NCBI GenBank assembly: GCA_964543815.1
Contig: CAZIZG010000005.1
Coordinates: 9,424-73,423, forward strand
Reading direction: 5' to 3'
Source: an uncultured Bdellovibrionales bacterium
GTDB lineage: Bacteria > Patescibacteriota > Minisyncoccia > Moranbacterales > UBA1568
Length of the DNA: 64,000 nucleotides
Below the pieces are notes generated by a model. It was not told where the DNA came from and made no database searches. It worked only from the letters and a program-made list of their open reading frames with translations. Both the position numbers and the translations under genes were made by a program. Below are positions 5,167 to 50,903 of this stretch, piece by piece (the first letter of the stretch is position 1; each line of letters opens with the position of its first letter).

Positions 5167-6415
5167 AAAACACTTCATCCCATTTTTCTTTGCGATTCAG
5201 ACGATTCGTACTCACAAAGCACGAACAGCTTTGGCGCTCCTGGGAGTAGTGATTGGTGTCTTTGCGGTAGTAGTAGTGACGAGTCTCGGCGAGGGAGTTA
5301 AAGGTTTTATTTTGGGACAGGTAGAAAGTTTCGGGAGCGATCTTATCCAGGTGGAAGTCAAAATTCCCAACACAACCGCCATGTCGAGTGAGAACTCAAC
5401 TGGTCGAGCCCAAGGGACTCAGATTACGACGCTTACTGTCAAAGATGGTGAAGCTATTGAAAAACTTCCTAATGTGGCAGCGGTCTACGCTGGCACTATC
5501 GGACAGGAGCGGGCCACGTATGACGCAACCGGGAAGCGTATCTCACTTTTTGGAACCGGAGCGGATGTGGCTGAAGTAGACAGTAATTTGAAACTTGAGA
5601 GCGGGCGCTTCTTTACGAGTGAAGAGGACAGGAGTCTCGCTCAAGTGGCGGTGCTCGGGAGTGATATCAAAGAAACGTTTTTTGGATCGAGTGAAGCGGT
5701 CGGGCAGTATATTACTCTCAAAGGGGAGAAATATCGAGTTATTGGTGTTTTGGCATCTCGGGGAGCGGTGGCCTTTCTTAATTTCGATACCTTTACCTAT
5801 GTGCCAGTTCAGACGCTACAAAAAAAGTTGCTGGGAGTGGACTACGTGCAGTTTATTTCTGTTAAAATGGAAAATCCGAATCAAGAGGCTGAAACGGTAG
5901 CTGATATCGTAGCTCTGCTTCGAAAGCGTCACGATATTGATAATCCCGACAAAGATGATTTTTCGGTTACCTCAACCAAGGAAGCGCAAAAAACTTTCAG
6001 CGATATCTTGGGATCACTTTCGATACTGCTCCTCGCTCTCACCTCCATCTCACTCGTAGTTGGTGGGGTTGGTATCATGAACGTCATGTACGTATCGGTT
6101 TCTGAACGTACTTCGGAGATTGGGCTGCGTAAAGCAGTAGGGGCAACATCAGGCAGTATTTTGCAACAGTTTTTGTTTGAGGCACTCATCATCACGCTGG
6201 TCGGAGGACTTATCGGGATTCTGTTTGGGACACTCCTGACACTGCTCCTTGGTGTTGTTTTTGCCTCGTTTGGCTTTGCTTTGCCACTCTCGTTTTCTGG
6301 ACAGTCATTTCTCTTGGGAGTGGGGTTTTCGACCGCAGTGGGGATTATTTTTGGTCTGGCGCCGGCCTATCGGGCAGCCTCACTTACTCCGATGGAAGCC
6401 CTCCGTAAGGATTGA
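5159..6415 (+). CDS. ABC transporter permease, MacB/FtsX family (second copy)
   Basis: Same architecture as the first copy (GIMNVMYVSVSERTSEIGLRKAVG); the ATG at 5159 overlaps the upstream stop, so the six-frame ORF start at 5027 is rejected. Confidence 0.8.
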   Translation: MNKKHFIPFFFAIQTIRTHKARTALALLGVVIGVFAVVVVTSLGEGVKGFILGQVESFGSDLIQVEVKIPNTTAMSSENSTGRAQGTQITTLTVKDGEAIEKLPNVAAVYAGTIGQERATYDATGKRISLFGTGADVAEVDSNLKLESGRFFTSEEDRSLAQVAVLGSDIKETFFGSSEAVGQYITLKGEKYRVIGVLASRGAVAFLNFDTFTYVPVQTLQKKLLGVDYVQFISVKMENPNQEAETVADIVALLRKRHDIDNPDKDDFSVTSTKEAQKTFSDILGSLSILLLALTSISLVVGGVGIMNVMYVSVSERTSEIGLRKAVGATSGSILQQFLFEALIITLVGGLIGILFGTLLTLLLGVVFASFGFALPLSFSGQSFLLGVGFSTAVGIIFGLAPAYRAASLTPMEALRKD

Positions 6416-6504
6416 CAGTATAGTAAAAAAATGCTATACTATTTTGTCCAGTTTGGACATGTTTTTTATTCCGTCATTGTGACGGAATCAACCAGGAGTC
6501 CTTC

Positions 6505-6864
6505 ATGAACGTACGTGCTTTGGTGGCTGCGGTTGCAGTCACGGTCTCGTTTTCCAGCACAGCTGAAACCATCCTCCTTACCAAGGAGGGCGGTGCGCTC
6601 GACACGCCTACCGTGGCGACGCTCCTCATCGAGTTTCGTCCCAAGCCGGGTGTGAAGGACGAAGCGGCTAAGAAGCTGTTTGAAACAGCTCTCTACGCTT
6701 CTTACGACGAGCCGGGTCAGTTCACTGGCGGCGAGGATTTGCCGCGGTGCGTTCGAACCAAGGCAGCTGCCAACGGCTATGGCACATGGGTGCGCCGAGT
6801 GGTGACAAAAGCCAAGGTGCCGGTGTGGGTCACCAGAATCACCTACAACTGCATCAAGAAATGA
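6505..6864 (+). CDS. Hypothetical small secreted protein in a GC-rich segment
   Basis: 119 aa with an N-terminal signal-peptide-like segment; AGGAG Shine-Dalgarno 6 nt upstream; sampled GC about 55-65% against flanks in the 40s. Confidence 0.55.
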   Translation: MNVRALVAAVAVTVSFSSTAETILLTKEGGALDTPTVATLLIEFRPKPGVKDEAAKKLFETALYASYDEPGQFTGGEDLPRCVRTKAAANGYGTWVRRVVTKAKVPVWVTRITYNCIKK

Positions 6865-6908
6865 GACTTCAGAGGTCGTAATCAGCCGGCCACTCAGGTC
6901 AGTCAATA

Positions 6909-6955
6909 AAAGGGTCACTACCATTGGCCGTGACCCTTCTTCATTTTATTTTTGA
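6909..6955. terminator. Bidirectional rho-independent terminator between convergent genes
   Basis: AAAGGGTCAC / GTGACCCTT stem with 11-nt loop; T-run follows on the plus strand and an A-run precedes it (T-run on the minus strand). Confidence 0.55.
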
Positions 6956-9060
6956 TACATCTTGCGGATATCATCAATCGAGAGAGTGGCGCTCTCGGGT
7001 ATATCATTGAGGGTATCGGCGCTCTCCGCTCTATAGGTGGTGATGCGATTCTTTTTCATTTTTTTCGCTTTACTTTCGGGAATCTCTCGTCCGGTTTTTT
7101 TGTCGATGTAGATGGTTTTGCTACTCATCGAATCAAGAGGGCTCGCCAGATGCTTGTCGGACTCTTCTTTGTAGGCGGTAAAGCCGGTTTCGGGATATTG
7201 CTTCAGGGCGGTATTCATGAAATCACGCCAGATGGGAGCGGCAACGAAGATGCCATCAGCTCCGGCATGCATCGGGTGATTATTATTGTTGCCAGCCCAG
7301 ACGGCGACGGCGATGGATGGGGTGTAACCAACGGTCCAGGCGTCGCGGAAATTTTGCGTGGTACCAGTCTTGGCAGCAACTTGTACGCCAGCTGGAAAAG
7401 CGAGCGGACTCTTTGGTCCAAAGATGGGCGTGCGGGCGGCATTGTCCGAGAGGATGGAGCTAATTTTTCTGGCTACTTCTGGATCAAGGACCTGCTTCGA
7501 TTCTAGGAGTTCACGTTTTGCAACTTCGTGACCGTTTCGATCGATGAGGCGGGTGATGGTGGTAGTGGGATGGTTTTTTCCTTCTTGTCCAAAGACGGAA
7601 AAGGCGTTGGCCATATCAAGCGGTCGGACCTCAGCGCCGCCCAAGACGAGTGAAAGGCCATAACGTTTGGGTTCGGTGAGGGTGGTGATACCGAGGTCGG
7701 TTGCGAGTTTGATAGTATCCGCGACACCAGCCAGGGCGAGCGTTTGGACAGCTGGAATATTGAGAGATTGGGCGAGTGCCTGGCGCATGGTCAAGCGTCC
7801 ATGAAATTTTCCGTCGTAGTTTTGGGGGATATAGTCACGACCAGAACCATCGGGACCGAAGTTGGTGAGGGTATCAATGAGAGGTGTTTCTGGTTGAAAG
7901 CCCTTGGTAAAGGCTGTGGCGTAGGCAAATGGTTTGAAGGCAGATCCTGGTTGACGTTTTTCCAACGTAACATTGACATTGCCGTCGATACTTTGGTCAA
8001 AGTAGTCACGCGAACCAACCATGGCAAGAACATCGCCGTTTTTGGCATCGATGGCCACGAGGGCAGCATTACTGGCTCCATGGCTTAGGTTACGCTTCCC
8101 ACCTTCTTGCACGGCTTGTTCAGCGGCTCTCTGAAGATTGAGATCAAGGGTGGTGATGATATGAAGCCCTTTGGTCTGCAGTTCAGATTCGGAATACTGT
8201 TTCTTTAGTTCATCAATGACTGCAAAGACAAAATGGGGGGCGATAATGGAGGTTGTTCTGGGAATAATTTTGGCAAGAGTATCGCCTTCTTCAGCGGTAT
8301 GCCAGTCGTTTCGTGAAATGAAGCCGAGGGTATACATGCGTTCAAGGATATTTTGTTGCCTGGCTCTCAATTCCTCCTGATTGATGCTATAGGGTGAGAA
8401 ATACGTAGGAGCATTGGGAAGAGCAGCGAGCAGCGCACTTTCATCGAGGGAGAGTTCCTTGGCTGATTTCTGAAAAAACATGTGAGCAGCGGATTCGATG
8501 CCATAGGTGTTAGTGCCATAGGGAACCGTATTGAGATACAAATCAAGTACCTCATCCTTGTGAAGTGTGGCATCAATCTTGATAGCGAGAAGCGCTTCGC
8601 GCACTTTACGTTCGAGGGTACGTTCGTTATTTAGGAACAATGCGCGAGCGAGCTGCTGAGTGATAGTGGAGCCACCCTGTTCAATACGGCCACTCATGAC
8701 ATTGGCTCGAAGAGCGCGCAGAATAGAGAGAGGGTCGATGCCATGATGGGTGTAGAAACTAGCATCCTCGGAGGCGATAGTGGCGAGACGGACGGATTCT
8801 GGGATAGCGTCATGGTCCACCAGGATACGGTTTTCCTCGTCGTAGAGTCGATAGAGCTCGGTTTGTCCAGTCCGGTCGTAGAGGATAGTCGGGAGATGGA
8901 AGGGAAAGTTCCGAATCTGACTGATATCCGGTGTTCCGTAACGATAAATAAGGAAGAGGCCGATGATAATGCCGAGTATGGCGAGTAAGGCAAAAAAGAC
9001 CACTTCGGAAAGAATGGTCAGAAGTGGGCTTTTGAACTTAAAATGAGAGAGATTGAACAT
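6946..9060 (-). CDS. Class A penicillin-binding protein (bifunctional transglycosylase/transpeptidase, PBP1A-type)
   Basis: 704 aa with an N-terminal TM anchor, GT51 motifs (EDASFYTHHGID, GGSTITQQLAR) and transpeptidase motifs SAFKPF, SLN, KTGTT. Confidence 0.9.
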   Translation of the reverse strand: MFNLSHFKFKSPLLTILSEVVFFALLAILGIIIGLFLIYRYGTPDISQIRNFPFHLPTILYDRTGQTELYRLYDEENRILVDHDAIPESVRLATIASEDASFYTHHGIDPLSILRALRANVMSGRIEQGGSTITQQLARALFLNNERTLERKVREALLAIKIDATLHKDEVLDLYLNTVPYGTNTYGIESAAHMFFQKSAKELSLDESALLAALPNAPTYFSPYSINQEELRARQQNILERMYTLGFISRNDWHTAEEGDTLAKIIPRTTSIIAPHFVFAVIDELKKQYSESELQTKGLHIITTLDLNLQRAAEQAVQEGGKRNLSHGASNAALVAIDAKNGDVLAMVGSRDYFDQSIDGNVNVTLEKRQPGSAFKPFAYATAFTKGFQPETPLIDTLTNFGPDGSGRDYIPQNYDGKFHGRLTMRQALAQSLNIPAVQTLALAGVADTIKLATDLGITTLTEPKRYGLSLVLGGAEVRPLDMANAFSVFGQEGKNHPTTTITRLIDRNGHEVAKRELLESKQVLDPEVARKISSILSDNAARTPIFGPKSPLAFPAGVQVAAKTGTTQNFRDAWTVGYTPSIAVAVWAGNNNNHPMHAGADGIFVAAPIWRDFMNTALKQYPETGFTAYKEESDKHLASPLDSMSSKTIYIDKKTGREIPESKAKKMKKNRITTYRAESADTLNDIPESATLSIDDIRKMYQK

Positions 9061-24214: not shown

Positions 24215-24309
24215 TTTCCGGGAATACGCCTTGGCTTCTTTGCTTGCCAAATTTAAGGGAAAAACGGTACTATGGAGATACTAATTTGCTTTGTTGTGAA
24301 AGAAATATT

Positions 24310-24972
24310 ATGAACGGATTGATGAAAATTGGCGGAGCAGCCATTTTGGTTATCGGAGCATTTTTTCTTTTCAAATACGGGTTTAGCTCTGATTCTGATG
24401 CGACTGGGTCAATTAATAGTGCGCTTACTGACGTGACAGAGCAGGACTGGGTGAAGGGAAGCGCTGATGCGCCGGTGACGCTCGTTGAATATACGGACTT
24501 TCAGTGCCCGGCTTGCGGCGCCTATTACCCGATAGTAAAACAACTCATAGATGAAAAGAGTGATCAGTTACGATTGGTTGTTAGACAGTATCCGCTCATT
24601 CAAATCCACAAAAATGCTTTGACGGGCGCCAGGGCCTCCGAAGCCGCTGGCAAACAAGGGAAGTTTTGGGAGATGTATGACCTCCTTTTTACTAATCAGG
24701 CAGAGTGGTCCAATGCTGACGATCCGATGAAGAGCATCATTCCTTCTTATGCCGGCCGGATTGGTCTCGATATCGAGCGGTTTCGTAAGGATATGACTGA
24801 CCAGGCCATTGATGACAAGATTACCCATGATCGCAAGACGGGGGACGATCTCAAGATTACGGGGACACCAAGTTTTTTCCTCAATGGCAAGCAGGTTGAA
24901 TTGAAAAATATTCGGAGCTTTGATGATTTCAAAAAAATCGTTGAAAAGGCGATTGCTGACAGTCAAAAGTAA
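24310..24972 (+). CDS. DsbA-like thiol:disulfide oxidoreductase, membrane-anchored
   Basis: N-terminal TM then a thioredoxin fold with CPAC active site (FQCPACGAYYP). ATG 24310 chosen over the ORF-track start. Confidence 0.7.
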   Translation: MNGLMKIGGAAILVIGAFFLFKYGFSSDSDATGSINSALTDVTEQDWVKGSADAPVTLVEYTDFQCPACGAYYPIVKQLIDEKSDQLRLVVRQYPLIQIHKNALTGARASEAAGKQGKFWEMYDLLFTNQAEWSNADDPMKSIIPSYAGRIGLDIERFRKDMTDQAIDDKITHDRKTGDDLKITGTPSFFLNGKQVELKNIRSFDDFKKIVEKAIADSQK

Positions 24973-25064: not shown

Positions 25065-26438
25065 ATGGGGCTGCGGGATAAAAAAAGGAAATCGATATCG
25101 TCAGTTTTGTTGGCGAGCTTGTCTTTTGTGATGTTGGCTGGAGCAGCTTTGTTTGTCACCGCTCATACGCAGTCTTGGGTGCCGGTTTCATTGGCTAAAG
25201 GGGATGACAACGGGGATGATGGTGATGACGACGGAGGCGATGATGGTGATAGCAAGGATGATAAAGAGAAGGAGAGCGAAAAAAAGAAATCAGAGGCTGA
25301 CAAGAAAGCCAAAGAGGAGGCAAAGAAGAAGGCTGAACGAGAGTCTGAAGCTGCCAAAAAGTCGGCTGAACAAATGCGGAAGTCTTCAGGAAGTGGAAAC
25401 GAGGCGGAAAACGAATCTGACGATATCAATGATGATCATGGTATCGAGGTTGAGGATGAGGACGAGAATGAGAGTGGCGATGATAACGGAATGTTTAAGG
25501 ATCGCACCAAGACTCTTTCTAAACTTGATGAAGAGTTAGCGAAAGCTGAAAAGGAAATTCTTGAGAAGCAGGCCGAGGGTGTTGATGTAACAGCCGCTCT
25601 TGCTCGATTGGCTGAGGCCAAGGCGAAAGCTGGTACAGTCGGCGCTGCTTTTGACGCCAATGACTTGGCAGCAGTGAAGGATCTTGGCCAAGAAGTGAAG
25701 AAACTTGCTCATTTTGCCAGTCACGACGATCTTCATGATGCCAAAAAGGTCGCGGAGAATGTAGCGCGTGTAGCGAAGCGCATCGCTCAAACAACCGGAA
25801 AAATATCGCTTCTTGAAGCGGTCGGAGGTGATGGTTCAGCATTTAAGGCTTCCTTGGCAACGCTCGAGACGGAATACGCCGGGCTCAAAGAAACCGTCAC
25901 AGCCGGGAGTTATGATGTGGTAGCTATGGAAGCTTCACTTCGTACCCTTGAGCGCAAGGTGAAGGCTGTTAAGAGTAGTGTTGAAGCCGCTATCTATGCC
26001 CTGGGTGGTACTGATAGTAAATACGATGATGATTATGAGGATGAGTCTCATGACGTGGCGGAGCATTTAAATGATGTGGCGGAGATCGAGGATGATCATG
26101 TCGGCTTGGTTATCCATGGCATTGCCGAGGATCACAAGAGTTCTGCCAAAAAGGTTGGAGAGGTGGTTACTAAGATTGACAATCGTAACCCGGTACTGCA
26201 GACACTTCTTGGTTCGAGCAGTAGTGATTTGAACGAGCTTGAGCAGGAGATTGCTGCTAATAAGTCACGGGTTGAGATGTTGACTCAGGCAGCGAACTCC
26301 GTGTCAGACCCGGATGTTCAGACAATGCTGTTTGACCAGATAGAGACCCTCAAAGAACAGACTGCCAAGCTCGAAACATTTGTAGAAGGTCAGCGTGACC
26401 GCCTCAGCGTCCTTGGTTGGTTCTTTAAGTTGTTCTAA
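25065..26438 (+). CDS. Hypothetical membrane-anchored, highly charged (D/E/K-rich) coiled-coil surface protein
   Basis: 457 aa with an N-terminal hydrophobic anchor, a poly-acidic DDNGDDGDDDGGDDGD tract, a KE-rich low-complexity region and alpha-helical heptad-like repeats. Confidence 0.5.
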   Translation: MGLRDKKRKSISSVLLASLSFVMLAGAALFVTAHTQSWVPVSLAKGDDNGDDGDDDGGDDGDSKDDKEKESEKKKSEADKKAKEEAKKKAERESEAAKKSAEQMRKSSGSGNEAENESDDINDDHGIEVEDEDENESGDDNGMFKDRTKTLSKLDEELAKAEKEILEKQAEGVDVTAALARLAEAKAKAGTVGAAFDANDLAAVKDLGQEVKKLAHFASHDDLHDAKKVAENVARVAKRIAQTTGKISLLEAVGGDGSAFKASLATLETEYAGLKETVTAGSYDVVAMEASLRTLERKVKAVKSSVEAAIYALGGTDSKYDDDYEDESHDVAEHLNDVAEIEDDHVGLVIHGIAEDHKSSAKKVGEVVTKIDNRNPVLQTLLGSSSSDLNELEQEIAANKSRVEMLTQAANSVSDPDVQTMLFDQIETLKEQTAKLETFVEGQRDRLSVLGWFFKLF

Positions 26439-26452
26439 AGGAAGTCTGCTAA

Positions 26453-26486
26453 AAAAGAAAAGAGAGCTCGAGCTCTCTTTTCTTTT
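26453..26486. terminator. 34-bp perfect palindrome (AAAAGAAAAGAGAGCTCGAGCTCTCTTTTCTTTT), probable bidirectional terminator
   Basis: Perfect 15-bp arms around a CTCGAG centre with T-run/A-run arms; lies 15 nt after the stop of the upstream gene. Confidence 0.55.
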
Positions 26487-26551
26487 CGTACAGTCGTTTT
26501 CATGGTAAAATTTGTTTACATTGAAGTGGTAACCCGCCATTTTTTGTTTCT

Positions 26552-26977
26552 ATGGATAGAAAATCAGAGCTGATATCTTGGATATTTTTTGTGGTATCAG
26601 CTTTCGTAATTGTGACTCTTTTTTCAAAATTTTATATATTAAGAGATTATACTTTGCGAAGTGAGGTTGCGTGTAATCCCCAATCGGAAGTTTGTTTTAT
26701 TCGGTCTTGCTCTGAAGACTGTGAGGAAGAAGCTAGCCCCGAATATTATAAGATTCGAATGATTCATGCTAGTGATGTGCCGTTATGTGATCCACATGTG
26801 GAGGAGTGCGCTCAAATCGATTGTAAGTCAGTGATTTCATGTGAAGAGCAATATTGCACTGAAGAATCTGTTCCGGAAGGCGAATCTTGTAGCGCAATTG
26901 AAAACTTTTTGATTGAGGAATCAGAGGGTGATACGGAGGAAGTGATGGAAATAAATGATAATCCCGAAGAAGAATAG
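26552..26977 (+). CDS. Hypothetical Cys-rich small membrane protein with an acidic C-terminal tail
   Basis: 141 aa with an N-terminal TM helix, 15 cysteines in the extracytoplasmic part and a C-terminal EESEGDTEEVMEINDNPEEE; the stop lies 4 nt before the next start. Confidence 0.5.
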   Translation: MDRKSELISWIFFVVSAFVIVTLFSKFYILRDYTLRSEVACNPQSEVCFIRSCSEDCEEEASPEYYKIRMIHASDVPLCDPHVEECAQIDCKSVISCEEQYCTEESVPEGESCSAIENFLIEESEGDTEEVMEINDNPEEE

Positions 26978-26981
26978 TGTT

Positions 26982-28277
26982 ATGAGGGTGTTGTTTATTT
27001 CTGAAGAATTAGGAGCTGCTGAACTGGCTCTAAAGCTTAAGAGTGAAGGAAATGATGTTAAGCTTTATATCCACCTTGATGAGTTGAGGGATTGTTTGAA
27101 TGGTCTAATCGAAAAGACTGATCACTGGAAAAATGAGCTAAATTGGGTTGGGAAGGATGGACTTATTGTTTTTGATGATGTTGGCTATGGTATTGAACAA
27201 GATCAATTACGAAAAGATGGTTATAGAGTGGTTGGTGGTAGTGCGGCTGGCGATAGAATAGAAGAAGACAGGGAATATGGCCAGACTATTCTTCGTCAGT
27301 GTGGTATTCAGACCCTTCCTTGTCATAATTTTGAAAATGCGGATGAAGCCATCGTTTTCGTCAAAGACCACATGAATGATTTGTGGGTTGTGAAGAAGAA
27401 TGGTGGTCATATTAGTCACTATTGCTATGTTCCTGATGATAAGAGTGCTAATCGTGACACGATTGGTTTACTTGAACGATACTCTGCACTTGGCTTCAAA
27501 AATATTAATCTTCAGAAGAAAGCTCAAGGGGTTGAAATTGGTATTGGTAGGTATTTCAATGGAAATGATTGGGTCGGGCCAATTGAAATAAATATCGAGC
27601 ACAAAGGGCTGTTTCCTGGTGATGTTGGTCCGAAAACGCCTGAGATGGGGACATTAATTTGGTATGAAAAAGATGAAAATAGCCGACTCTTTATTGAAAC
27701 CCTGGGTAAGATGAAGGAATATCTTCACTCGATTGATTTTAGGGGTGATATAGACTTGAGCTGCTTTGTCTCGGAGCAGGAAATTTGGCCGTTAGAATTT
27801 ACGGCGCGTTTTGGGAATCCCGCGACTGCTTTACAGATCGAGTTGCAAAATTCTCCGTGGACCGAATTTCTCTCAGCGTTGGCTGATGGAGTCTCGTATG
27901 ATCTGGATTGCAAGGAGGGTGTTGGTGTTGTCGTGACATTGGCTGTGCCGCCTTTTCCGTACTATTTTACCCAGCCTTCCTCTGAAAGTTCGGTCGGTTT
28001 TCCCGTTGTTTTCTCAGACACATTATCACGGGAAGATATGCAGCACTATTATTTCGAAGAGATAAACAGAATTGATAGTTTTGGTTATTCAGTGGCTGGT
28101 GCCAGGGGATGTGTTATGCATGTTGGTGCAGTAGGAGAAAACATCAAAAAAGCAAGGGATTTGGTGTATGAGCGCATTGGCAAGGTTCATATTCCTAAGA
28201 TGTTCTATCGAGATGATATTGGCTTGGATTTTGAAAAGCGAGGAAGAGAATTATTGAAAAAATGGAATTGGATTTGA
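26982..28277 (+). CDS. Divergent PurD-like (phosphoribosylamine-glycine ligase family) ATP-grasp ligase
   Basis: EFTARFGNPATA aligns with PurD EFNCRFGDPETQ and the C-terminal RDDIG matches PurD; the canonical N-terminal GGREHAL and KADGLAAGKGV motifs are not conserved. Confidence 0.55.
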   Translation: MRVLFISEELGAAELALKLKSEGNDVKLYIHLDELRDCLNGLIEKTDHWKNELNWVGKDGLIVFDDVGYGIEQDQLRKDGYRVVGGSAAGDRIEEDREYGQTILRQCGIQTLPCHNFENADEAIVFVKDHMNDLWVVKKNGGHISHYCYVPDDKSANRDTIGLLERYSALGFKNINLQKKAQGVEIGIGRYFNGNDWVGPIEINIEHKGLFPGDVGPKTPEMGTLIWYEKDENSRLFIETLGKMKEYLHSIDFRGDIDLSCFVSEQEIWPLEFTARFGNPATALQIELQNSPWTEFLSALADGVSYDLDCKEGVGVVVTLAVPPFPYYFTQPSSESSVGFPVVFSDTLSREDMQHYYFEEINRIDSFGYSVAGARGCVMHVGAVGENIKKARDLVYERIGKVHIPKMFYRDDIGLDFEKRGRELLKKWNWI

Positions 28278-28298: not shown

Positions 28299-29237
28299 AT
28301 GTTAGAAAATTGGCTTCTCGTGGCATTCATTGCGCCGATGCTGTGGTCTTTAGTCAATTTGATTGATGTGTATTTTGTGAATGATGTCTATCGGGATGAA
28401 TATGATGGAGCAATTATTTCTGGCCTTTTTCCGATATTGCCTTGGACTCTGGTATTGTTTGGAGTCGTAGCCTTTAATTTTCCAGATACTGGATGGATGT
28501 GGTTTCTCACGGGAGGGGCACTTTTTCTGTTCGCAAACTTTTTTTACTTTAAAAGTCTTTTCCGAAATAATGACGCGGCATTGGTACAGATTTTTTGGAA
28601 CTTAACCGTCCCATTTACCTTGTTGTTTTCCTGGTTTTTTTTTCAAGAGAGTCTAAATCTTAAAGAGTATATTGGTATTGCTATTGTTTTAATCGGAGTA
28701 ATATACCTTTCGCTACAGGAGAAGGGGGATGAGTGGAAAATAAAGGATGTGTTAAAAAATATTATCCCAGCTTCTGTTTTGCTTGCTTCTAGTCTCGTTT
28801 GCACGAACTATGCCTATGAATCATCAGAGGTGCATTTTTTTGATGGGTATCTGGTGTTCGCCTCTGGTATGGTTCTAGGTGCTCTCGCACTTAATCTTTT
28901 TGATAAAACAAGTCTTAAAAATCGCTTTTCTCAAATTACCGTACTGACTAAGAAATATTTTCTGGTATTTTTTGCAGCTGAGCTTTTGGCTCTTGTAGGA
29001 ACAATCACCTCTCAAAGGGCTCTAGATCTTAGTCCTTCAGCGTCCTTTGTTGCCACTATTGAAAGCCTAAGCCCAGTTTTCGTTATGTTTTTCAGTCTCG
29101 TTATTGTGGTTTTGGGAAGAACATTGATTCGTGATTTTTCTGTGAGTGAATCTTTATACAACGCCCAATTTAGAGCTTTGAAAAAAAAATTTTTTGCAGT
29201 CACTACTATTGCTATTGGGATTTTTCTAGTGAGCTAG
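28299..29237 (+). CDS. DMT-superfamily (EamA-like) transporter
   Basis: 312 aa, about 10 TMs in two internal repeats, each ending in EamA-like IGIAIVLIGVIYLS / IAIGIFLVS motifs. Confidence 0.6.
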   Translation: MLENWLLVAFIAPMLWSLVNLIDVYFVNDVYRDEYDGAIISGLFPILPWTLVLFGVVAFNFPDTGWMWFLTGGALFLFANFFYFKSLFRNNDAALVQIFWNLTVPFTLLFSWFFFQESLNLKEYIGIAIVLIGVIYLSLQEKGDEWKIKDVLKNIIPASVLLASSLVCTNYAYESSEVHFFDGYLVFASGMVLGALALNLFDKTSLKNRFSQITVLTKKYFLVFFAAELLALVGTITSQRALDLSPSASFVATIESLSPVFVMFFSLVIVVLGRTLIRDFSVSESLYNAQFRALKKKFFAVTTIAIGIFLVS

Positions 29238-29296: not shown

Positions 29297-30952
29297 ATGT
29301 TTTGTACAGATATACCAAGTCCAATTGCGCTGATTTTTTCGAGTTCAACGCCCCAGTTGTTGTATTATTCTCACCTCCCCGCTGTTTTTTCAGCAGTTCT
29401 TGTTGGGTTGCTTATTTATTCAAAAAATAAGACTTTACAAGCAAAGTTGTTACTAACGTTGGTTCTATTGTTCTCGCTTTGGAATTTCATTGATCTTGTG
29501 AATTGGACAAATGTTGATAGTCGAAGGATTATGCTGACTTGGTCGATAATGAATTTTGTCGCTATTTTAATTGCAGTAACCACGCTTTATTTTTCGTACG
29601 CTTTTTTGGAAAAAAAGGATGTATCATGGAAAATAAAGTATATTGTGGCTACCCTGATTCTCCCGTACCTCATTCTTCTTCCGACATCAATGAATATTTC
29701 CGTGTTTGACCTGTCTCTTTGTGAGGCAGAGGAGGGTATACTAACTCTATATTTTTACTTCTTGCAAGGGGTATTTTTATTGTGGACGCCATCCTACTTG
29801 ATATATCGGTATATCAATACGCCAAGCCAAAAAAAAGCCGAGGTCTCATTTCTCGCTCTCGGAGTTCTATTTTTTCTTATGTTATTTTTTGGGGGAACCT
29901 TTGTAGCATCGTATAGCGGTGTTTGGGAGTATGAGCAGTATGGACTTTTCGGCATGATTTTATTCCTTGGACTGCTGACAGTGCTTGTTGTTCGTTATCA
30001 AGCCTTCAATGTTCGAATGATTGGAGCGCAGGCATTAGTGCTTGCGTTGGTGCTTTTGATTGGGTCACAGTACTTTTTTACGGTAGATGCCACTAATTTA
30101 ATTTTAATTTCAATTACTCTTCTACTCACCTTTGTTTTTGGTATCATTCTCATTCGCTCGGTCAAAGAGGAGGTGCGGAGAAAAGAAGAGTTACAGGTTT
30201 TGACCCAGGAGCTGGCGCAGGCCAATCAGGAACTTAAGCGGTTGGATGCGGCTAAGAGCGAATTTATCTCCATTGCTTCGCACCAGCTGCGGACGCCACT
30301 GACCGCTATTAAGGGCTATATTTCGCTTGTGCTTGAGGGCTCCTACGGCAAGGTAATTCCATCGGTGCAGGATGTTTTGAACAAAGTATATCTCGTCAAC
30401 AATCGTATGGGTCAACTGGTTGAGGACTTGCTGAGTATTTCTCGGATTGAATCCGGTCGGGTCCAGTATAATTTTGTTGAGGCGCAACTTGAGCCGATGG
30501 TGGCAGACATCGTGGATATGTTCGCGCTCATGGCTAAGGACAAAAAATTATCTCTCAAAATAAAGTTGCCCAAGAAGTCACTTCCAAAGTTGACGCTTGA
30601 TGTCAACAAAATGCGAGAGGTGGTTTCTAATCTTATCGATAACGCTCTCAAATATACCAAAGAGGGCGGTGTGACGGTCGAGGTAGATGAGGAGCCTGGT
30701 TTTGCGGTTGTTAGGGTGAGGGATACCGGTATTGGGGTTGACCCGAGAGATACTGATCGTCTCTTCGAAAAGTTTACTCGGAGTACAGAAACGATGAAGC
30801 TTGATGTCTCCGGAACAGGACTCGGTCTCTATGTTGGCAAAAATTTTGTTCAGGCTCATGGCGGGACACTTGCCGTCGAGTCTGAGGGAGCCGGCAAAGG
30901 GGCCTGCTTCATTATTCGGCTGCCACTGAAGTCTGCTGTTCAGAAAGGTTGA
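29297..30952 (+). CDS. Sensor histidine kinase with a large polytopic N-terminal membrane domain
   Basis: About 290 aa of TM helices, a coiled-coil linker, HisKA H-box IASHQLRTPLTAIKGY and HATPase_c N/G boxes (IDNALKYT, GTGLGLYV). Confidence 0.85.
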   Translation: MFCTDIPSPIALIFSSSTPQLLYYSHLPAVFSAVLVGLLIYSKNKTLQAKLLLTLVLLFSLWNFIDLVNWTNVDSRRIMLTWSIMNFVAILIAVTTLYFSYAFLEKKDVSWKIKYIVATLILPYLILLPTSMNISVFDLSLCEAEEGILTLYFYFLQGVFLLWTPSYLIYRYINTPSQKKAEVSFLALGVLFFLMLFFGGTFVASYSGVWEYEQYGLFGMILFLGLLTVLVVRYQAFNVRMIGAQALVLALVLLIGSQYFFTVDATNLILISITLLLTFVFGIILIRSVKEEVRRKEELQVLTQELAQANQELKRLDAAKSEFISIASHQLRTPLTAIKGYISLVLEGSYGKVIPSVQDVLNKVYLVNNRMGQLVEDLLSISRIESGRVQYNFVEAQLEPMVADIVDMFALMAKDKKLSLKIKLPKKSLPKLTLDVNKMREVVSNLIDNALKYTKEGGVTVEVDEEPGFAVVRVRDTGIGVDPRDTDRLFEKFTRSTETMKLDVSGTGLGLYVGKNFVQAHGGTLAVESEGAGKGACFIIRLPLKSAVQKG

Positions 30953-31006: not shown

Positions 31007-31819
31007 ATGTCGAGAATTTTGTTGGTAGAGGATGACCCGTTTATTGCTGAAATATACAAGAAAAAATTAGAGAGTTCCGGTTTTGAGCTCGTGAACGTGA
31101 CTTCCGGCCGAGCTGTTCTTAAAGAAGTGAAAGAAAAAAATTTTGATCTCATTTTGCTTGATTTGGTGTTGCCCGAAATGAGTGGCACTGAGGTGCTAAG
31201 TGAACTTCGACACAACAAAGAGTATGACCCGAATCTCAAGATAGTAGTTTTCAGTAATTTGAGTAGTAGCGAAGATCGAGAACAGGTTTTGCGACTTGGT
31301 GCCAATGGTTTTATCTCCAAGACGGAATTTTCACCATCGGAAGTGGTGGGGGAAATTGAGCGTTTTTTGCGGCAATTCAGAGAACAGGACAAGAATTCCG
31401 CTGCAGAGGCCCAGGTACCAGAAGAAAAAAAGACGCTTGGTAAAAAAATCCTTCTCATTGAGGATGAAGCTGTTTTTGTTGAGATGTTCAGTAAGCGGTT
31501 GCGCAGTGAAGGGTACGAGGTGACCACGGAGCAAAACGGAGAGGCTGGTCTCAAGACCGCTCTTTCACAATCATTTGACCTCATTATTACGGATGTTATG
31601 ATGCCCAACATGGATGGGCGAGAATTTATCGGAAAACTCAAGGAGGAGGAGGCGGGTAAAAATGTTCCTATTTTTCTCCTCTCAGCTTCTGTGTCAATCG
31701 AGGATGAAAGCGTCAGGACGTTAACGGATGCGGGGATTGTTACCAAAGCCTTTCTCAAAACAGAAATTACTCCCAGTGAGCTGACCTATGCGGTCAATGA
31801 TTATTTTTCTGGTAAATAG
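31007..31819 (+). CDS. Response regulator with two tandem receiver domains and no output domain
   Basis: REC1 (ILLVEDD...LILLDLVLPEMSG...K) and REC2 (ILLIEDE...LIITDVMMPNMDG...K), each with a phospho-acceptor Asp; no HTH. Confidence 0.85.
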   Translation: MSRILLVEDDPFIAEIYKKKLESSGFELVNVTSGRAVLKEVKEKNFDLILLDLVLPEMSGTEVLSELRHNKEYDPNLKIVVFSNLSSSEDREQVLRLGANGFISKTEFSPSEVVGEIERFLRQFREQDKNSAAEAQVPEEKKTLGKKILLIEDEAVFVEMFSKRLRSEGYEVTTEQNGEAGLKTALSQSFDLIITDVMMPNMDGREFIGKLKEEEAGKNVPIFLLSASVSIEDESVRTLTDAGIVTKAFLKTEITPSELTYAVNDYFSGK

Positions 31820-45635: not shown

Positions 45636-46301
45636 ATGGGAAATCAGAATCTTTTCGTGTTGCTTCGCTCGAAATTTGGTACCCTGGTCATCTGGGGATT
45701 GCTTTTCGGCGCCTTGGCATTCTTCGGTCTTCTTATGACCGAAAAGCCATTTCAGACCAAGATGGATTTCTTGGTAGTGCAGGCTAATGCGACCAATCAG
45801 GATTTCTATACCCAGTTTAAATCCTCTGAGTATCTGGGCAAGATTTTGTCTGAGGCGGTGTACAGCGATCGCTTTATTGATGCCCTTGTTGAAACTGGCA
45901 AGGTAAATAAAGAATTCCTGCCTTTTGATAAACAGCAACGCCTCGCTACTTGGAGCAAGATGGTCCAGGTTGATAAGAACCTTGAACTCGGTATCATCAG
46001 TGTGACTGTCAAAGGTGATCGTGAACGCGATGTTGCTCGAATCATGGATGGTATCGCCGAGGTACTGACGACGCGCAATTCCCTCTTCCGTGGTGGTGAT
46101 GAAAAGAGCGTGGAGATCCGAATTCTTTCCGGCCCCATTCTTGAGCAGAATCCTGGGATGGCCAAGACACTGAAAGTGGTGCTCGTTGCCTTCCTCGCTG
46201 GACTGTTTGTTTCAGCCTTTGTCATCATCGTGAAAGCTGAATCCAAAACGAAGCCAGTCATTCGTCCGGATGGTCTTCATTTGAACGATACCATAGTCTA
46301 A
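45636..46301 (+). CDS. Wzz/polysaccharide co-polymerase-like protein (paralog 2 of 3)
   Basis: 221 aa with TM helices at both ends; the periplasmic region resembles the proteins at 22446 and 60811 (QANATNQDFYTQFKSSEYLGKIL). Confidence 0.45.
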   Translation: MGNQNLFVLLRSKFGTLVIWGLLFGALAFFGLLMTEKPFQTKMDFLVVQANATNQDFYTQFKSSEYLGKILSEAVYSDRFIDALVETGKVNKEFLPFDKQQRLATWSKMVQVDKNLELGIISVTVKGDRERDVARIMDGIAEVLTTRNSLFRGGDEKSVEIRILSGPILEQNPGMAKTLKVVLVAFLAGLFVSAFVIIVKAESKTKPVIRPDGLHLNDTIV

Positions 46302-46454
46302 GTAATTCCTTGATACTTGTGGCTTTCTGGTCATAAGTATCCTGGGAAGAGAGCGGTGTAGCGTTATCGTCATCACTGCTTTCTTCCTAGGATAGATTCG
46401 AAAGTGTAGTTTAACAATCAGTCTATCAGTTTTCAACTTCAACCTGGAGGTCGT

Positions 46455-47582
46455 ATGACCATGTTTCATAAGCTTTTGCTTCTGATCGTGTACGCGGCCT
46501 TCGCTGGTTGTGCCACGAATCCGCGTTTTGCCACTGAACTGCCCGCGAGTCATATCTCGGGTCAGAAGGTGTGTGAAGTGCCACAGCATTGGGAGGCGCT
46601 GGCGCTGAAAGGCGTCAATATGAAGTCGCTTACCAAGGCGAATGTGATTCAAGTGAGGATTCCGCCACAATGGGTGGGGGATGCGCTCGGGTGGTTTGTC
46701 GAGAGCGAGGAAGCTCGTACACTCGAACACTATCCGCGTATGACATGGCAAGCGCTGGTGGTAAATCAGCGTGGCGAGAAACAGATGTTTCCCGCCGTCA
46801 TGAAGAACCCGCTCGTTTCACCGATACTGACGATCATCATTGCAGACCCGGCATTTTCGATGGGGGATGAAGTGAACGTGTATGTGCCATCGGGCGCCTA
46901 CACCAAGCTTCTGACTACCACCGGTGATATGCTGCGTCTACCGATGAGTATGGACTGCCTTGGATTGGTTGATGCCGAATTCGTTCGGTCATTTCCGTCC
47001 AAGGCTCGAGTGCTGCCGGCAGGTGAAAGTCTGCTTGCGGGTATTCGGAAGGACTTCTCTGAGCCATCACTGCAAAGCGATGGCACGGTCTATTCCATCA
47101 GTCCGTTGGCGCTCACTCCGCAAGTGGTGGGTGACCTCCGTCAGGTGACACAGGGTGAGCGTATCGCTGAACGTGGTTTGCCGATTGCCTTTCCTCCAGG
47201 ATTGGGCACGGCAATTTCGCTCACTGTTGCTCTCGCGAGCACTGGTGACGATAAGTACGTCGGACCTTTCGGGGAACGGCTGTACTCACCACCTGAGGTG
47301 AATGCTGCGCTCGCTCGATATCTGCGCGTTTACAACTCGCTTAAGAATGACCTGGAATGGCGTCTGGGGATACCTCCTTCGGATGCTGTTGCTCCTCACC
47401 TGACCTTTGACGGACGCAAGTCCGGCTGGGAAATCGGTGAAGAGATGGTCTTTCGAGTGAGGGCCATGTGGGAAGTGCTCGATCAGTTGAAAGAGCGCTT
47501 TCTGTCTCGCACCAAGGAGAAAGGTGCACCTGCAATGAAAGAAGCAACTCAGACCGGGCTGCTTCCGAGCAGCTCACCTTAA
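46455..47582 (+). CDS. Hypothetical lipoprotein (island gene 1)
   Basis: Signal peptide with lipobox-like AAFAGC; GGAGG SD 6 nt upstream; GC-rich codon usage; no catalytic motifs recognised. Confidence 0.5.
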   Translation: MTMFHKLLLLIVYAAFAGCATNPRFATELPASHISGQKVCEVPQHWEALALKGVNMKSLTKANVIQVRIPPQWVGDALGWFVESEEARTLEHYPRMTWQALVVNQRGEKQMFPAVMKNPLVSPILTIIIADPAFSMGDEVNVYVPSGAYTKLLTTTGDMLRLPMSMDCLGLVDAEFVRSFPSKARVLPAGESLLAGIRKDFSEPSLQSDGTVYSISPLALTPQVVGDLRQVTQGERIAERGLPIAFPPGLGTAISLTVALASTGDDKYVGPFGERLYSPPEVNAALARYLRVYNSLKNDLEWRLGIPPSDAVAPHLTFDGRKSGWEIGEEMVFRVRAMWEVLDQLKERFLSRTKEKGAPAMKEATQTGLLPSSSP

Positions 47583-47602
47583 ACCCTTTGGAAGGAGTTC
47601 CC

Positions 47603-49120
47603 ATGAAATGGCTTCCCTCTCTCCTGCTGCTCCTCGGAGCGGCGGGTGCGTGGGCTGGTCAACCACCAGACCACAGGATCGAGCCAGGTGAAACGCTTGG
47701 CAAGATCGCGCAGAAGTACGGTTACGACTACAAGGTGCTTGGCGCCTTCAATGGTCTGACCAATCCGAACAAGATCCAGGCAGGAGCGATGATCCGGTTT
47801 CCGGCTCGTGGTGCCTCGCCTGCGATCAAGTCAGAACTTTCGTGCATTACGCTCGGTGCTGCTCCCTTCAACCCGGAGCACGTACTGAAGCGGACGCTCG
47901 AGGGTATCGACCTGCTTCAGACGCTGACCCCTCAACAACGGGAGTTGGCCAAGAACAAGGTTCTGCTCGGCGAGGTCGCAACGAGGAACGAATTGGTGGG
48001 GCAGCAAATCTTCACGGAAATGTTGTACCAATCCAAGTTCGGCAAGAAGCAAGTGGTGCACGTGTTCGGCAAGCCGATTTGCAGCCCGGAACAAGGGGGG
48101 CAGCCGGAGGTGATGAACACGTATGACCTGGGTGAGGGGGTATTTCTCTCCATCCCACGTCGGTGCGGCAACCCGTCAGTTTTCACCAAGCCGGTGAAGC
48201 CGACAACTCCGCCCCCGCCACCTCCTCCGCCACCAGCTACCACTCCCGATCCGACTCCTCCGGTGACATCACAACCCGATGAACCCGTAGAAGTTGAGCG
48301 GGTGGCACGTGACTACGATTGGGACGCGGGTCTCTTCGTAGGTGGCGACAAGGACGTGCGCTTTGCCGGTGGTGAAGGTGCTGGTTACCCGGTCATCAAG
48401 TATTACGACTGGGGACGCTACGCCCTCGGTGGTGGTGGTTCGTTTAGCCTCTGGAACGGCGGTACGCCTGATGGGTACCGCTACCGGGGTGAAACGGCTG
48501 CCTTTGGTCTGGCTCAGAAGTTTTCGTTCACAGGCGGTCGTGATCTGGGAGTCAAGTTCCCGATGTACGGTGACCTGTGGACGAGGGGTCATGACGCGAG
48601 TGGCAAGTACCAGCAGAAGACGCATGCCAGCATGCTCTGCGCTTCAGTGAGTTATACCGATGCTTCCCGTGAAAAGGAAGGCAAGACGGTGGCTCCCGAG
48701 TGGCAGCTGTGGGCATCGTTCTGCGACCCGTTCTCGCAGACCAAGTCGCACAGTTACGACGGCAAGCCTCTCGATGCGGCGACGATTCCCAACGTGAAGT
48801 ACGTGGCGGGCGTCGGCGGTCGGGTGATTCTGTCGAAGAATCTGGGCGACAGCGGTCTCGCGGCGAAGTTGCAACCGTTTGTGGAAGTGGGTGTCAATCA
48901 GACGGCGCCTAACCCACTCTCTGGACACGCCTACATCGGCCTGCGAACGGTCAACAAGGTGTGGGGTTGTGGAATCGGCGTGCACTACGCTGAGACCGGC
49001 AGTCTCCCCGGAGCTACCTGTACGTACGACCTCGGTCGTGACGTCAAGCTCCGGATCCAGAAGGAACGGTGGGATGCAATGATTCGGAGCCTCGAAGCTC
49101 TGGGTGTTGCTACCGACTGA
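47603..49120 (+). CDS. Secreted LysM-domain protein with poly-proline linker and a C-terminal Gly/Tyr/Trp-rich beta-rich domain (island gene 2)
   Basis: Signal peptide MKWLPSLLLLLGAAGAWA; LysM motif HRIEPGETLGKIAQKYGYDYKVLGAFNGLTNPNKIQAGAMIRFP; PTTPPPPPPPPPATTPDPTPP linker; GGAAGGAG SD. Start at 47603 rather than the ORF-track start. Confidence 0.65.
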   Translation: MKWLPSLLLLLGAAGAWAGQPPDHRIEPGETLGKIAQKYGYDYKVLGAFNGLTNPNKIQAGAMIRFPARGASPAIKSELSCITLGAAPFNPEHVLKRTLEGIDLLQTLTPQQRELAKNKVLLGEVATRNELVGQQIFTEMLYQSKFGKKQVVHVFGKPICSPEQGGQPEVMNTYDLGEGVFLSIPRRCGNPSVFTKPVKPTTPPPPPPPPPATTPDPTPPVTSQPDEPVEVERVARDYDWDAGLFVGGDKDVRFAGGEGAGYPVIKYYDWGRYALGGGGSFSLWNGGTPDGYRYRGETAAFGLAQKFSFTGGRDLGVKFPMYGDLWTRGHDASGKYQQKTHASMLCASVSYTDASREKEGKTVAPEWQLWASFCDPFSQTKSHSYDGKPLDAATIPNVKYVAGVGGRVILSKNLGDSGLAAKLQPFVEVGVNQTAPNPLSGHAYIGLRTVNKVWGCGIGVHYAETGSLPGATCTYDLGRDVKLRIQKERWDAMIRSLEALGVATD

Positions 49121-49262
49121 TAGACACTCCTCTCTCATGTAAAGTCCGAGACAGAATAAGTCTCAAGGCGAGCCTCTCAAGGGGCCGCCTCATAAAAAGT
49201 GTACGCTCTGACGTACTGGCTCATGGAGAGTAGGAAAACAGTCGCGACATCGTTCGCACAAT

Positions 49263-49306
49263 CAGGGCAGGAAGTTCATCCGAACGACCTGCCCTTGATC
49301 TTTTTA
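49263..49306 (+). terminator. Rho-independent terminator after the LysM gene
   Basis: AGGGCAGG / CCTGCCCT stem with 16-nt loop, followed by TTGATCTTTTTATA. Confidence 0.6.
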
Positions 49307-49332
49307 TACCTCCATAAAGCCATAATTTAGAT

Positions 49333-49361
49333 ATTGACAAAACAGGGAAAAGGGTGTATAC
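49333..49361 (+). promoter_or_regulatory. Near-consensus sigma70 promoter for island gene 3
   Basis: TTGACA, 17-nt spacer, TATACT; about 125-nt structured leader before the ATG at 49492. Confidence 0.65.
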
Positions 49362-49491
49362 TGAGTCGTTCAGTGGAAATCTCGTATGAGGTATCTCCTG
49401 AACGGTTTCGAATGTGCCTGAACATCCCAACCTCGGTTGGGTCGATGTGTCAGGCACATCTCATCACCCAACCACGTGCAAGGAGCACACC

Positions 49492-50827: not shown

Positions 50828-50837
50828 AATTCTTGCT

Positions 50838-50873
50838 TTCCTCATTTTTTCACGGTCGTGAGAAAATGAGGAA
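50838..50873. repeat. Hairpin element B (TTCCTCATTTT-N14-AAAATGAGGAA), 5' of the PaaX-like gene
   Basis: 11-bp inverted repeat with loop TTCACGGTCGTGAG, the reverse complement of the element A loop (one mismatch). Confidence 0.6.
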
Positions 50874-50903
50874 TTAAAGAAGGAGAAAAGTAGCAACGAA
50901 GAA

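Follow-up and report, generated by a model that had tools for sequence, protein, structure and literature searches.

We analyzed a pair of adjacent genes at positions 26552-28277 of a 64-kb stretch of DNA (64,000 nt, hereafter the window) from an uncultured bacterium of the Patescibacteriota (contig CAZIZG010000005.1). The first gene encodes a small Cys-rich membrane protein and the second a PurD-fold ATP-grasp enzyme, and both belong to a gene set that also includes a permease of the drug/metabolite transporter (DMT) family and a two-component system. We propose, with a probability of about 0.55, that the enzyme is a cytoplasmic, PurD-derived ligase making an arginine- or polyamine-derived amide within a module for transport and sensing. 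We observed four features on which this reading builds: the fold of the enzyme, its residue pattern, the size of its family, and a linkage to the same partner genes that was conserved through shuffled gene orders. In the literature searched, which omits most subscription journals, we found no description of the module, of the enzyme family or of the Cys-rich protein.

The PurD-fold ligase family

The enzyme (26982-28277, + strand, 431 aa) matched GARS_A and GARS_C only in Pfam at E ≤ 0.1, and no RimK-family Pfam domain was found at this threshold. Against the PurD equivalog model TIGR00877 it scored 99.5 bits, below the cutoff of 288, and in a PDB sequence search PurD chains alone were matched, with alignments from about residue 74 on. 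A Foldseek search was performed with an AlphaFold2 (AF2) model of the enzyme, built from 25 homologues (pLDDT 93). The top 15 matches were glycinamide ribonucleotide (GAR) synthetases, with TM-scores of 0.73-0.76, 17-23% identity and 427-456 aligned columns, and biotin carboxylases and PurK ranked much lower. In this model, the enzyme has the complete four-domain fold of PurD. The protein contains EFTARFGNPATA and a C-terminal YRDDIG, and its N-terminus, MRVLFISEELGAAELALKL, lacks the GGREHA motif, as does the family consensus. No signal peptide or transmembrane segment was predicted in the enzyme. The Pfam, PDB and alignment results agree with a preliminary description of this DNA, made from the sequence alone, in which the enzyme was presented as a divergent PurD-like ligase devoid of a GGREHA-type motif and of the KADGLAAGKG loop.

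Residue roles were mapped onto the enzyme from the PurD literature (PMC8880213; PMC2978367). Eight residues (E94, R97, K138, E185, H207, K208, E272 and R276) were kept and invariant in the family, and they match, in this order, E100, K103, K143, E192, H213, K214, E283 and R287 of PurD, which belong to the ATP, Mg and acyl-phosphate sites. Among them, K138, E185, E272 and R276, which stand for the ATP-binding Lys, the ribose-binding Glu, a Mg-binding acidic residue and the acyl-phosphate Arg, were invariant in 25 diverse homologues, a pattern that suggests competence for ATP-grasp catalysis. The second Mg ligand of PurD, the Asn of an E-x-N motif (N285), is an invariant Thr (T274, E-x-T) in the enzyme family. 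Among the four glycine ligands (Asp212, Arg287, Asp290 and Glu292 in Aquifex numbering), the Arg is kept as R276 and D212 is replaced by an invariant E206. The positions corresponding to D290 and E292 (279 and 281), which hold the glycine ammonium group and provide the base toward phosphoribosylamine (PRA), are variable in the family and are N and A in the window. The GLAAGK B-loop, conserved in all GAR synthetases (PMC2978367), is replaced by KNGGHISHY in the enzyme and by KQNGxHxSxxNY in the family consensus. Arg13 and Glu14 of GGREHA, the proposed PRA/acyl-phosphate site (PMC2978367), and the Arg of the C-domain are lost across the family. In all, every proposed PRA and phosphate ligand and two of the four glycine ligands have disappeared family-wide; retention of the full set, which the preliminary description had named as evidence for an ordinary PurD, was not seen in the enzyme alignments. 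Since the residues binding PRA and the glycine ammonium group are replaced, the enzyme would join a small carboxylate, possibly an amino acid, to a different amine. The simplest reading of this pattern would be an active carboxylate-amine ligase with new substrates.

The reading of the enzyme as a genuine, if divergent, GAR synthetase serving purine synthesis or salvage, with neighbours that are incidental, appears extremely improbable to us. Its sole relatives in sequence and structure are indeed PurD proteins, and some sources name its homologues phosphoribosylamine-glycine ligase. However, its score is only about one third of the equivalog cutoff, the ligand losses described above concern the whole family, and the linkage to DMT, Cys-rich and kinase genes presented below outlasts both the shuffling of gene order and horizontal gene transfer. 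In addition, PRA has a half-life of 5 s and PurF is needed (PMC2978367), and no pur gene was annotated in the stretch of approximately 20 kb around the pair (about 10 kb on each side) or among the genes at 43.8-52.3 kb. It is thus well supported that the enzyme is a PurD relative and not a PurD, and that work in purine synthesis is very unlikely; its placement outside purine metabolism by the preliminary description holds. The label "phosphoribosylamine-glycine ligase" would wrongly imply partial purine synthesis in metabolic reconstructions.

More than 1345 homologues of the enzyme were returned by a word-indexed search, at about 50% identity across the Candidate Phyla Radiation (CPR). The groups represented include Moraniibacteriota, Paceibacterota, Gribaldobacteria and Peribacteria, and public records call the proteins "hypothetical" or phosphoribosylamine-glycine ligase. 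Homologue names place the organism of the window in Patescibacteria, near Moraniibacteriota. At E ≤ 1e-30, an exhaustive profile search returned 748 clusters at 50% identity, and the scores fell smoothly. Four homologues, P0253 (784 aa), P0255 (778 aa), P0260 (1123 aa) and P0273 (749 aa), are roughly double the usual length or longer, and the profile aligns to each in two or three separate stretches; these proteins may contain inteins or be fusions.

Full-length relatives with 27-45% identity to the enzyme are also encoded by 223 viral contigs of IMG/VR (for example L086-L165; the loci fetched for comparison carry the ids L001-L168). The phage gene typically lies 3 nt past a gene for an internal-virion or ejection protein of 550-1500 aa with transglycosylase domains, and the Cys-rich, DMT and kinase partners are absent from these contigs. 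Two further distant members were found in phage-like contigs (L084, 6001-7251, and L085, 6001-7296), the first with an AdoMet_dc gene 650 nt away. Neither the enzyme, nor its phage homologue, nor the Cys-rich protein had a match in PHROGs.

Conserved partners and the Cys-rich protein

In the window, five tightly spaced + strand genes, recognized from the open reading frame (ORF) list and Pfam, lie downstream of a hairpin at 26453-26486. They encode the Cys-rich single-pass membrane protein (26552-26977, 141 aa, identified as an ORF with homologues), the enzyme, and a DMT/EamA-family permease of 312 aa that starts 21 nt past the enzyme (28299-29237; EamA 32.4 bits, cutoff 28.2). A sensor histidine kinase of 551 aa with a multi-transmembrane N-terminal region follows (29297-30952; HisKA and HATPase_c, with a weak HisKA_7TM match), and then a response regulator of 270 aa with two receiver domains and without output domain (31007-31819; Response_reg in two stretches, E 1.9e-45). 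A near-identical homologue of the DMT in L001 has roughly nine hydrophobic segments according to a crude scan. A match of the DMT to EmrE in the PDB sequence search was non-significant (E 0.03) and was not used.

We compared gene neighbourhoods in 80 species-level loci, using iterated profiles seeded from the window proteins and counting a partner when it was located within 6 kb of the enzyme; 47 of these loci, referred to as fully flanked, had at least 5 kb of sequence on each side of the enzyme. Genes in the loci were called in a crude way, as longest ORFs, so that the counts may be wrong by a few, and the taxonomic labels of metagenome-assembled genomes (MAGs) are unreliable in several records. 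A DMT gene was detected in 47/80 loci (31/47 fully flanked), a Cys-rich gene in 46/80 (30/47), a histidine kinase gene in 56/80 (36/47) and a response regulator gene in 24/80 (18/47). The DMT, Cys-rich and kinase genes were all present in 20 of the 47 fully flanked loci, and only one of the 47 had none of the three. The DMT gene was directly adjacent to the enzyme gene in 20 fully flanked loci. When loci were sorted by enzyme similarity, we observed, across many enzyme clades, the collinear orders CYS-ENZ-DMT, CYS-DMT-ENZ, DMT-CYS-ENZ, DMT-ENZ-CYS and ENZ-DMT-CYS (CYS, Cys-rich gene; ENZ, enzyme gene), as well as divergent arrangements. The pairing of the enzyme with the Cys-rich protein, for which the preliminary description had proposed a comparison among relatives, was recovered far beyond close relatives, in more than half of the loci and in several orders.

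In enzyme clades 9-10, which have no DMT gene, a different multi-transmembrane family (TM6, no Pfam model) adjoins the enzyme. Its members have 180-360 aa (L028, 4842-5924; L041, 2025-2768; L050, 3410-3970; and 14 other loci) and gave no match in Pfam, NCBIfam or PHROGs; this family is a candidate alternative transporter. In L055 (OZ244972.1, a Rhodospirillales MAG chromosome of 6.04 Mb), the enzyme and DMT genes stand alone at 6001-8307, in an island with a GC content of 0.41 between flanks of 0.52-0.55, and the island adjoins a DNA-methylase-like gene. This appearance suggests either that the two genes left Patescibacteria as a core by horizontal transfer or that the assembly is chimeric. 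The linkage was kept through extensive rearrangement and therefore argues for functional coupling and not for inherited synteny, a reading that is also fitted by the DMT replacement in clades 9-10, by the two-gene island of L055 and by the restriction of the other neighbours to subsets of loci. These other neighbours were DsbA (1 locus), GT4 glycosyltransferases (10), AspRS (20) and MreB (10 of the 80 loci). Overall, the results support a functional link between the enzyme, the Cys-rich protein, the DMT and the two-component system across Patescibacteria.

The preliminary description had assembled the same genes into a module, together with a DsbA-like protein upstream. All these neighbours were found in place, namely the EamA/DMT gene directly after the enzyme, the kinase and the two-receiver regulator downstream and the DsbA-like gene 1.58 kb upstream, and the linkage of ligase, Cys-rich protein, DMT and two-component system proved to be conserved. 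The label of "exporter" given to the DMT was an assumption, because the direction of transport is not readable from sequence. The DsbA-like protein, a membrane-anchored thiol-disulfide oxidoreductase (24244-24972, + strand; Thioredoxin_4 E 5e-26, DSBA E 1.9e-14), was rejected as a module member and is only context here: a homologue was near the enzyme in 1/80 loci, in close relatives only. Its presence shows that the organism is able to oxidise extracytoplasmic cysteines.

The small protein contains 10 Cys (positions 41, 48, 53, 57, 79, 86, 91, 97, 102 and 113), where 15 had previously been counted. A transmembrane helix at about residues 7-29 precedes the 10-Cys domain (residues 41-113, nt 26672-26890) and an acidic tail (residues 114-141, nt 26891-26974) that ends with EESEGDTEEVMEINDNPEEE. 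No Pfam or NCBIfam model matched this protein. Its family comprises at least 135 database proteins, all named "hypothetical", with 8-10 conserved Cys and the pattern DY...C-D-P-x3-E-x-C-F-x3-C...C...YYK...A...C-D-P-x4-C-x4-C-x5-C-x4-C-x10-C. The AF2 model had a pLDDT of 89 overall and was confident for residues 1-120, with a helix at residues 3-29 and a pLDDT of 57-68 in the tail. No fold match to it was found in the PDB (solved structures) or in BFVD (predicted viral structures), and the Cys-rich protein is thus a new family without fold match in the searched libraries.

Across the family, the N-terminal flank of the helix carried a median of three K+R, while the segment that follows the helix had a net charge of 0, and the ectodomain had a median net charge of -25. 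The number of Cys was even in 159/167 members, CxxC was present in 1/167, and C53 and C57 were lost jointly. This charge bias and Cys parity point to an N-in/C-out orientation with a disulfide-bonded ectodomain, consistent with the DsbA of the genome, and the Cys-rich domain is therefore predicted to lie outside the cytoplasm with its Cys in disulfide bonds. We rejected a zinc ribbon as a reading of this domain, given the rarity of CxxC and the even Cys counts.

The topology bears on the function first suggested for the gene pair, in which the ATP-grasp enzyme would act on the Cys-rich protein, either by adding amino acids to its acidic C-terminal tail (RimK-like polyglutamylation) or by cross-linking its side chains (graspetide-like macrocyclisation), with subsequent export by the DMT. 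The pair itself was confirmed by the ORFs and by the starts of homologues (141 aa and 431 aa, 4 nt apart, the small protein anchored in the membrane and ending in an acidic tail), and the gap is -1 to 8 nt in the clade of the window. The tail is Glu/Asp-rich in 95/165 family members, the two families co-localise in the 46 loci counted above, and genes of the phage sister clade neighbour those of virion proteins, which makes protein substrates conceivable for the wider family. We nevertheless consider a tail modification very improbable. The fold and the nearest relatives of the enzyme are those of PurD, a different ATP-grasp branch, and the 10-Cys domain is predicted outside the cell when the enzyme is cytoplasmic. 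The tail itself is variable: its length after the last Cys ranges from 1 to 89 residues, with 10 residues or fewer in 52/165 homologues, the C-terminal residue is D/E in 79/165, and the AF2 confidence of this part is low. Moreover, the Cys-rich gene is as often beside the DMT gene (18 of the 33 loci holding both) or the kinase gene as beside the enzyme gene; in L166 and L167 it shares 4 nt with the start of the kinase gene, and in L168 it occurs without an enzyme gene within 7 kb. Conversely, a Cys-rich gene is missing from 17/47 fully flanked enzyme loci, the immediate partner of the enzyme in many genomes is a pyruvoyl decarboxylase, and the phage homologues have no Cys-rich protein beside them. 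DMT permeases are not known to export proteins. The Cys-rich protein may thus be an envelope component of the module rather than a ligase substrate, and it could bind a cationic product or assist the kinase as a co-sensor. Second, more divergent Cys-rich copies lie between two histidine kinase genes in L034 (9516-10154) and L042 (10373-10996), which hints that the family pairs with kinases.

Accessory genes and a possible amide conjugate

A Pfam census was performed on the 252 other genes located within three genes of the enzyme. The top family was AdoMet_dc (14 genes), and we also found Radical_SAM (8 genes), NUDIX (7), SET (4), Spermine_synth (3), the arginase family (2), Orn_DAP_Arg_deC (2), SHMT (2) and several methyltransferase families, the largest single one with 7+2 members. 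In other lineages, pyruvoyl decarboxylases of the AdoMetDC or PvlArgDC type, aminopropyltransferases and GNATs were among the accessory neighbours. The AdoMetDC-type gene was often directly upstream of the enzyme gene, from which a few to about 150 nt separated it, and such genes occurred in five enzyme clades. Homologues of AdoMetDC in CPR bacteria and phages have repeatedly turned into arginine or ornithine decarboxylases (PMC10407285). A homologue of guanidinoacetate N-methyltransferase (GAMT) of roughly 237 aa was encoded in nine loci (L009, 3165-3875; also L008, L014, L016, L021, L032, L037, L064 and L074), mostly just downstream of the enzyme, with E 3e-46 to 3orh/1xcj. Patescibacteria thus encode close homologues of the animal enzyme, known from its human and rat structures.

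Three loci present particular arrangements. In L039, an AdoMetDC-SpeE fusion and a second SpeE are encoded directly upstream of the enzyme. The order in L167 is PvlArgDC (pyruvoyl arginine decarboxylase), a small ORF, enzyme, EamA, Cys-rich protein and histidine kinase, and that in L166 is GNAT, AdoMet_dc, LPG_synthase_C, EamA, Cys-rich protein and histidine kinase. The LPG_synthase_C protein of L166 (5115-6020, 301 aa) is of the MprF type and occupies the slot of the enzyme, in one widespread lineage with 24 or more contigs; this is an apparent non-orthologous displacement of the ATP-grasp enzyme. No LPG_synthase_C homologue was found in the 80 enzyme loci.

We infer what type of substrate is used, which way transport runs and what the kinase and the Cys-rich protein do, as follows. 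The ligase would be a cytoplasmic, catalytically competent descendant of PurD with the ATP and acyl-phosphate machinery retained. A decarboxylase would supply an amine of the arginine-derived or polyamine type, among which agmatine is favoured because of the PvlArgDC, guanidino methyltransferase and arginase-family genes. The ligase, or a tRNA-dependent substitute, would couple this amine to a small carboxylate, and the DMT permease, or the alternative multi-transmembrane protein, would move substrate or product through the membrane. On the outer side, the disulfide-rich and strongly acidic Cys-rich protein may bind the cationic product or sense it together with the kinase, and the multi-transmembrane histidine kinase and its response regulator would form the sensing arm. 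Profiles of AdoMetDC, GAMT, TM6, SET and radical-SAM gave no match in a six-frame translation of the 64-kb window, so that within this span the lineage of the window has the core module alone. In this organism, the amine would have to be supplied by genes located beyond the window or by the surroundings of the cell.

Several observations weigh against this proposal. The Mg ligand change from E-x-N to E-x-T and the missing Gly-rich lid make an altered or reduced ATP chemistry possible. The large phage sister clade sits in virion and ejection-protein modules, and a protein-directed activity is conceivable within the family. In the clade of the window, the short gaps between the Cys-rich and enzyme genes suggest translational coupling and are compatible with a direct physical partnership. 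The topology and the disulfides of the Cys-rich protein derive from charge bias and Cys parity. The polyamine- or agmatine-related neighbours occur in a minority of loci (about 20-30%), and no accessory amine gene is present anywhere in the window. Finally, the AdoMetDC-type neighbours could be SAM, arginine or ornithine decarboxylases, three out of five being at or below the TIGR03330 cutoff.

The arrangement of L166 also bears on another explanation, in which the ligase would alter surface charge by amidating or aminoacylating lipid head groups or cell-wall precursors, in the manner of MprF or the D-Asp ligase, with the DMT acting as a flippase and the kinase and the Cys-rich protein monitoring the envelope. 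LPG_synthase_C followed by EamA in this locus mimics the synthase-flippase architecture of MprF, a membrane partner (DMT or TM6 family) is nearly obligatory, and the module of the window lies among envelope genes, with GT4 glycosyltransferases, a Wzz-like protein and DsbA upstream and MreB, MreC and PBP2 downstream. However, the LPG_synthase_C replacement is found in one lineage only, a PurD pocket suits small soluble substrates, and envelope neighbours are limited to close relatives, according to the GT4 and MreB counts given above. In addition, EamA proteins with 10 transmembrane segments are mostly solute carriers. We regard this envelope modification as rather unlikely.

As a bolder reading, held with less confidence than the one given at the outset, the ligase might belong to a previously undescribed envelope module shared by Patescibacteria. 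In such a module, the ligase would make an agmatine or polyamine amide, the DMT would carry it through the membrane, and the new-fold, disulfide-rich and polyanionic protein together with the 7TM kinase would bind or sense it, as a cationic-metabolite or surface-charge system. A sister clade of the enzyme would have been recruited into virion and ejection modules of phages. If this were true, the system might serve host attachment or nutrient capture.

Patescibacteria/CPR represent a large share of bacterial diversity, yet a function is known for only a minority of the conserved genes specific to their lineages. The enzyme family appears to have arisen from PurD by neofunctionalisation and to be part of a transporter-sensor module, a functional variant that would be new on a fold that is known. 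Its ties to pyruvoyl decarboxylases and to a GAMT-like methyltransferase lead to a concrete hypothesis, a new arginine- or polyamine-derived conjugate, and the Cys-rich protein is a structural target. These results add to recent studies of atypical polyamine enzymes in CPR bacteria and phages (PMC10407285; PMC9992855); a term search of these two articles gave no mention of an ATP-grasp enzyme, of PurD or of a ligase.

Locus boundaries and comparison with known systems

Upstream of the module, a perfect 15-bp hairpin (AAAAGAAAAGAGAGC / GCUCUCUUUUCUUUU; 26453-26486, + strand) is located 3' of the stop codon of the upstream gene. Its folding energy is -23 kcal/mol (z -3.5), and none of 200 shuffled sequences folded equally well. 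This hairpin is likely an intrinsic terminator and the 5' border of the transcription unit, and the sequence TGgTAAAAT downstream of it, at about 26503-26511, may be an extended -10-like motif. For the gene starts, public gene callers propose a small protein of 128 aa (start 13 codons downstream) and an enzyme of 440 aa (start 9 codons upstream), with a 23-nt overlap. We preferred the starts giving 141 aa and 431 aa, with the enzyme ATG at 26982 and a spacer of 4 nt from the small-protein stop, because the N-termini of homologues are conserved: M1 is invariant across the enzyme family in the homologue alignment, and the N-terminus MDRKS/MDKKSK is conserved among homologues of the small protein.

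Directly upstream of the module, a 457-aa protein (25065-26438, + strand) has an N-terminal hydrophobic segment followed by a long Asp/Glu/Lys-rich stretch of low complexity. It had no Pfam or NCBIfam match, and homologues were located near the enzyme in 7/80 loci. Further downstream, the region 46000-50000 is GC-rich (0.54-0.59 versus about 0.47 elsewhere) and contains ORFs of 375 aa and 550 aa, which overlap by about 115 nt, and of 229 aa; the sole domain match is one LysM in the 550-aa ORF. A ribosomal RNA operon was rejected as the cause of the high GC content, Rfam giving two tRNAs only on the whole window. A PaaX central Cas2-like domain (E 1.9e-21) was identified in a protein of 224 aa at 50282-50953 (- strand), which adjoins an O-antigen-ligase-like (Wzy_C) membrane protein at 50907-52283.

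Compared with PurD (TIGR00877; PDB 2yw2, 2xcl, 1gso and 2qk4), the enzyme has the same N-B-A-C ATP-grasp fold over its full length and shares the ATP-binding Lys and Glu, the H-K dyad, the Mg-binding Glu, the acyl-phosphate Arg and the C-terminal YRxDIG. It differs by the absence of GGREHA, of the GLAAGK lid, of Asp295/Glu297 (human numbering) and of the C-domain Arg, and by a Thr in place of the Asn of E-x-N. The identity is only 17-23%, the N-domain is not alignable by sequence, and the genes linked to the enzyme gene are those for the transporter, the kinase and the Cys-rich protein and not pur genes. RimK and the graspetide ligases belong, like the enzyme, to the ATP-grasp superfamily, and the neighbouring gene also encodes a product with an acidic C-terminus. 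By contrast, the nearest folds of the enzyme are PurD, biotin carboxylase and PurK, and the tail of its neighbour is unconserved and predicted to be extracytoplasmic. The Cys-rich homologues do not have the conserved C-terminal Glu expected of a RimK substrate, and the neighbour, a membrane-anchored protein whose conserved positions are its 10 Cys, is unlike the microviridin-type graspetide precursors, which are short, have a conserved core of Thr/Ser/Lys and Asp/Glu and are cross-linked by a dedicated ATP-grasp enzyme; the contrast is drawn on these features, with no direct comparison to MdnB/MdnC sequences. In L166, LPG_synthase_C and EamA take the positions of the ligase and of the DMT, as in MprF, which suggests by analogy a common logic where a cationic conjugate is made inside and then moved outside. 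MprF is, however, a single fused membrane protein that depends on aminoacyl-tRNA, whereas the enzyme of the window is a soluble ATP-grasp protein. A parallel for the proposed reaction class would be found in glutathionylspermidine synthetases, trypanothione synthetases and other carboxylate-polyamine ligases, which use ATP to link a small carboxylate to a polyamine-type amine as an amide. The likeness concerns the proposed reaction class alone, the enzyme described here being derived from PurD; the clustering of a ligase with polyamine biosynthetic genes has itself a precedent in the hss-gss clusters (PMC9992855).

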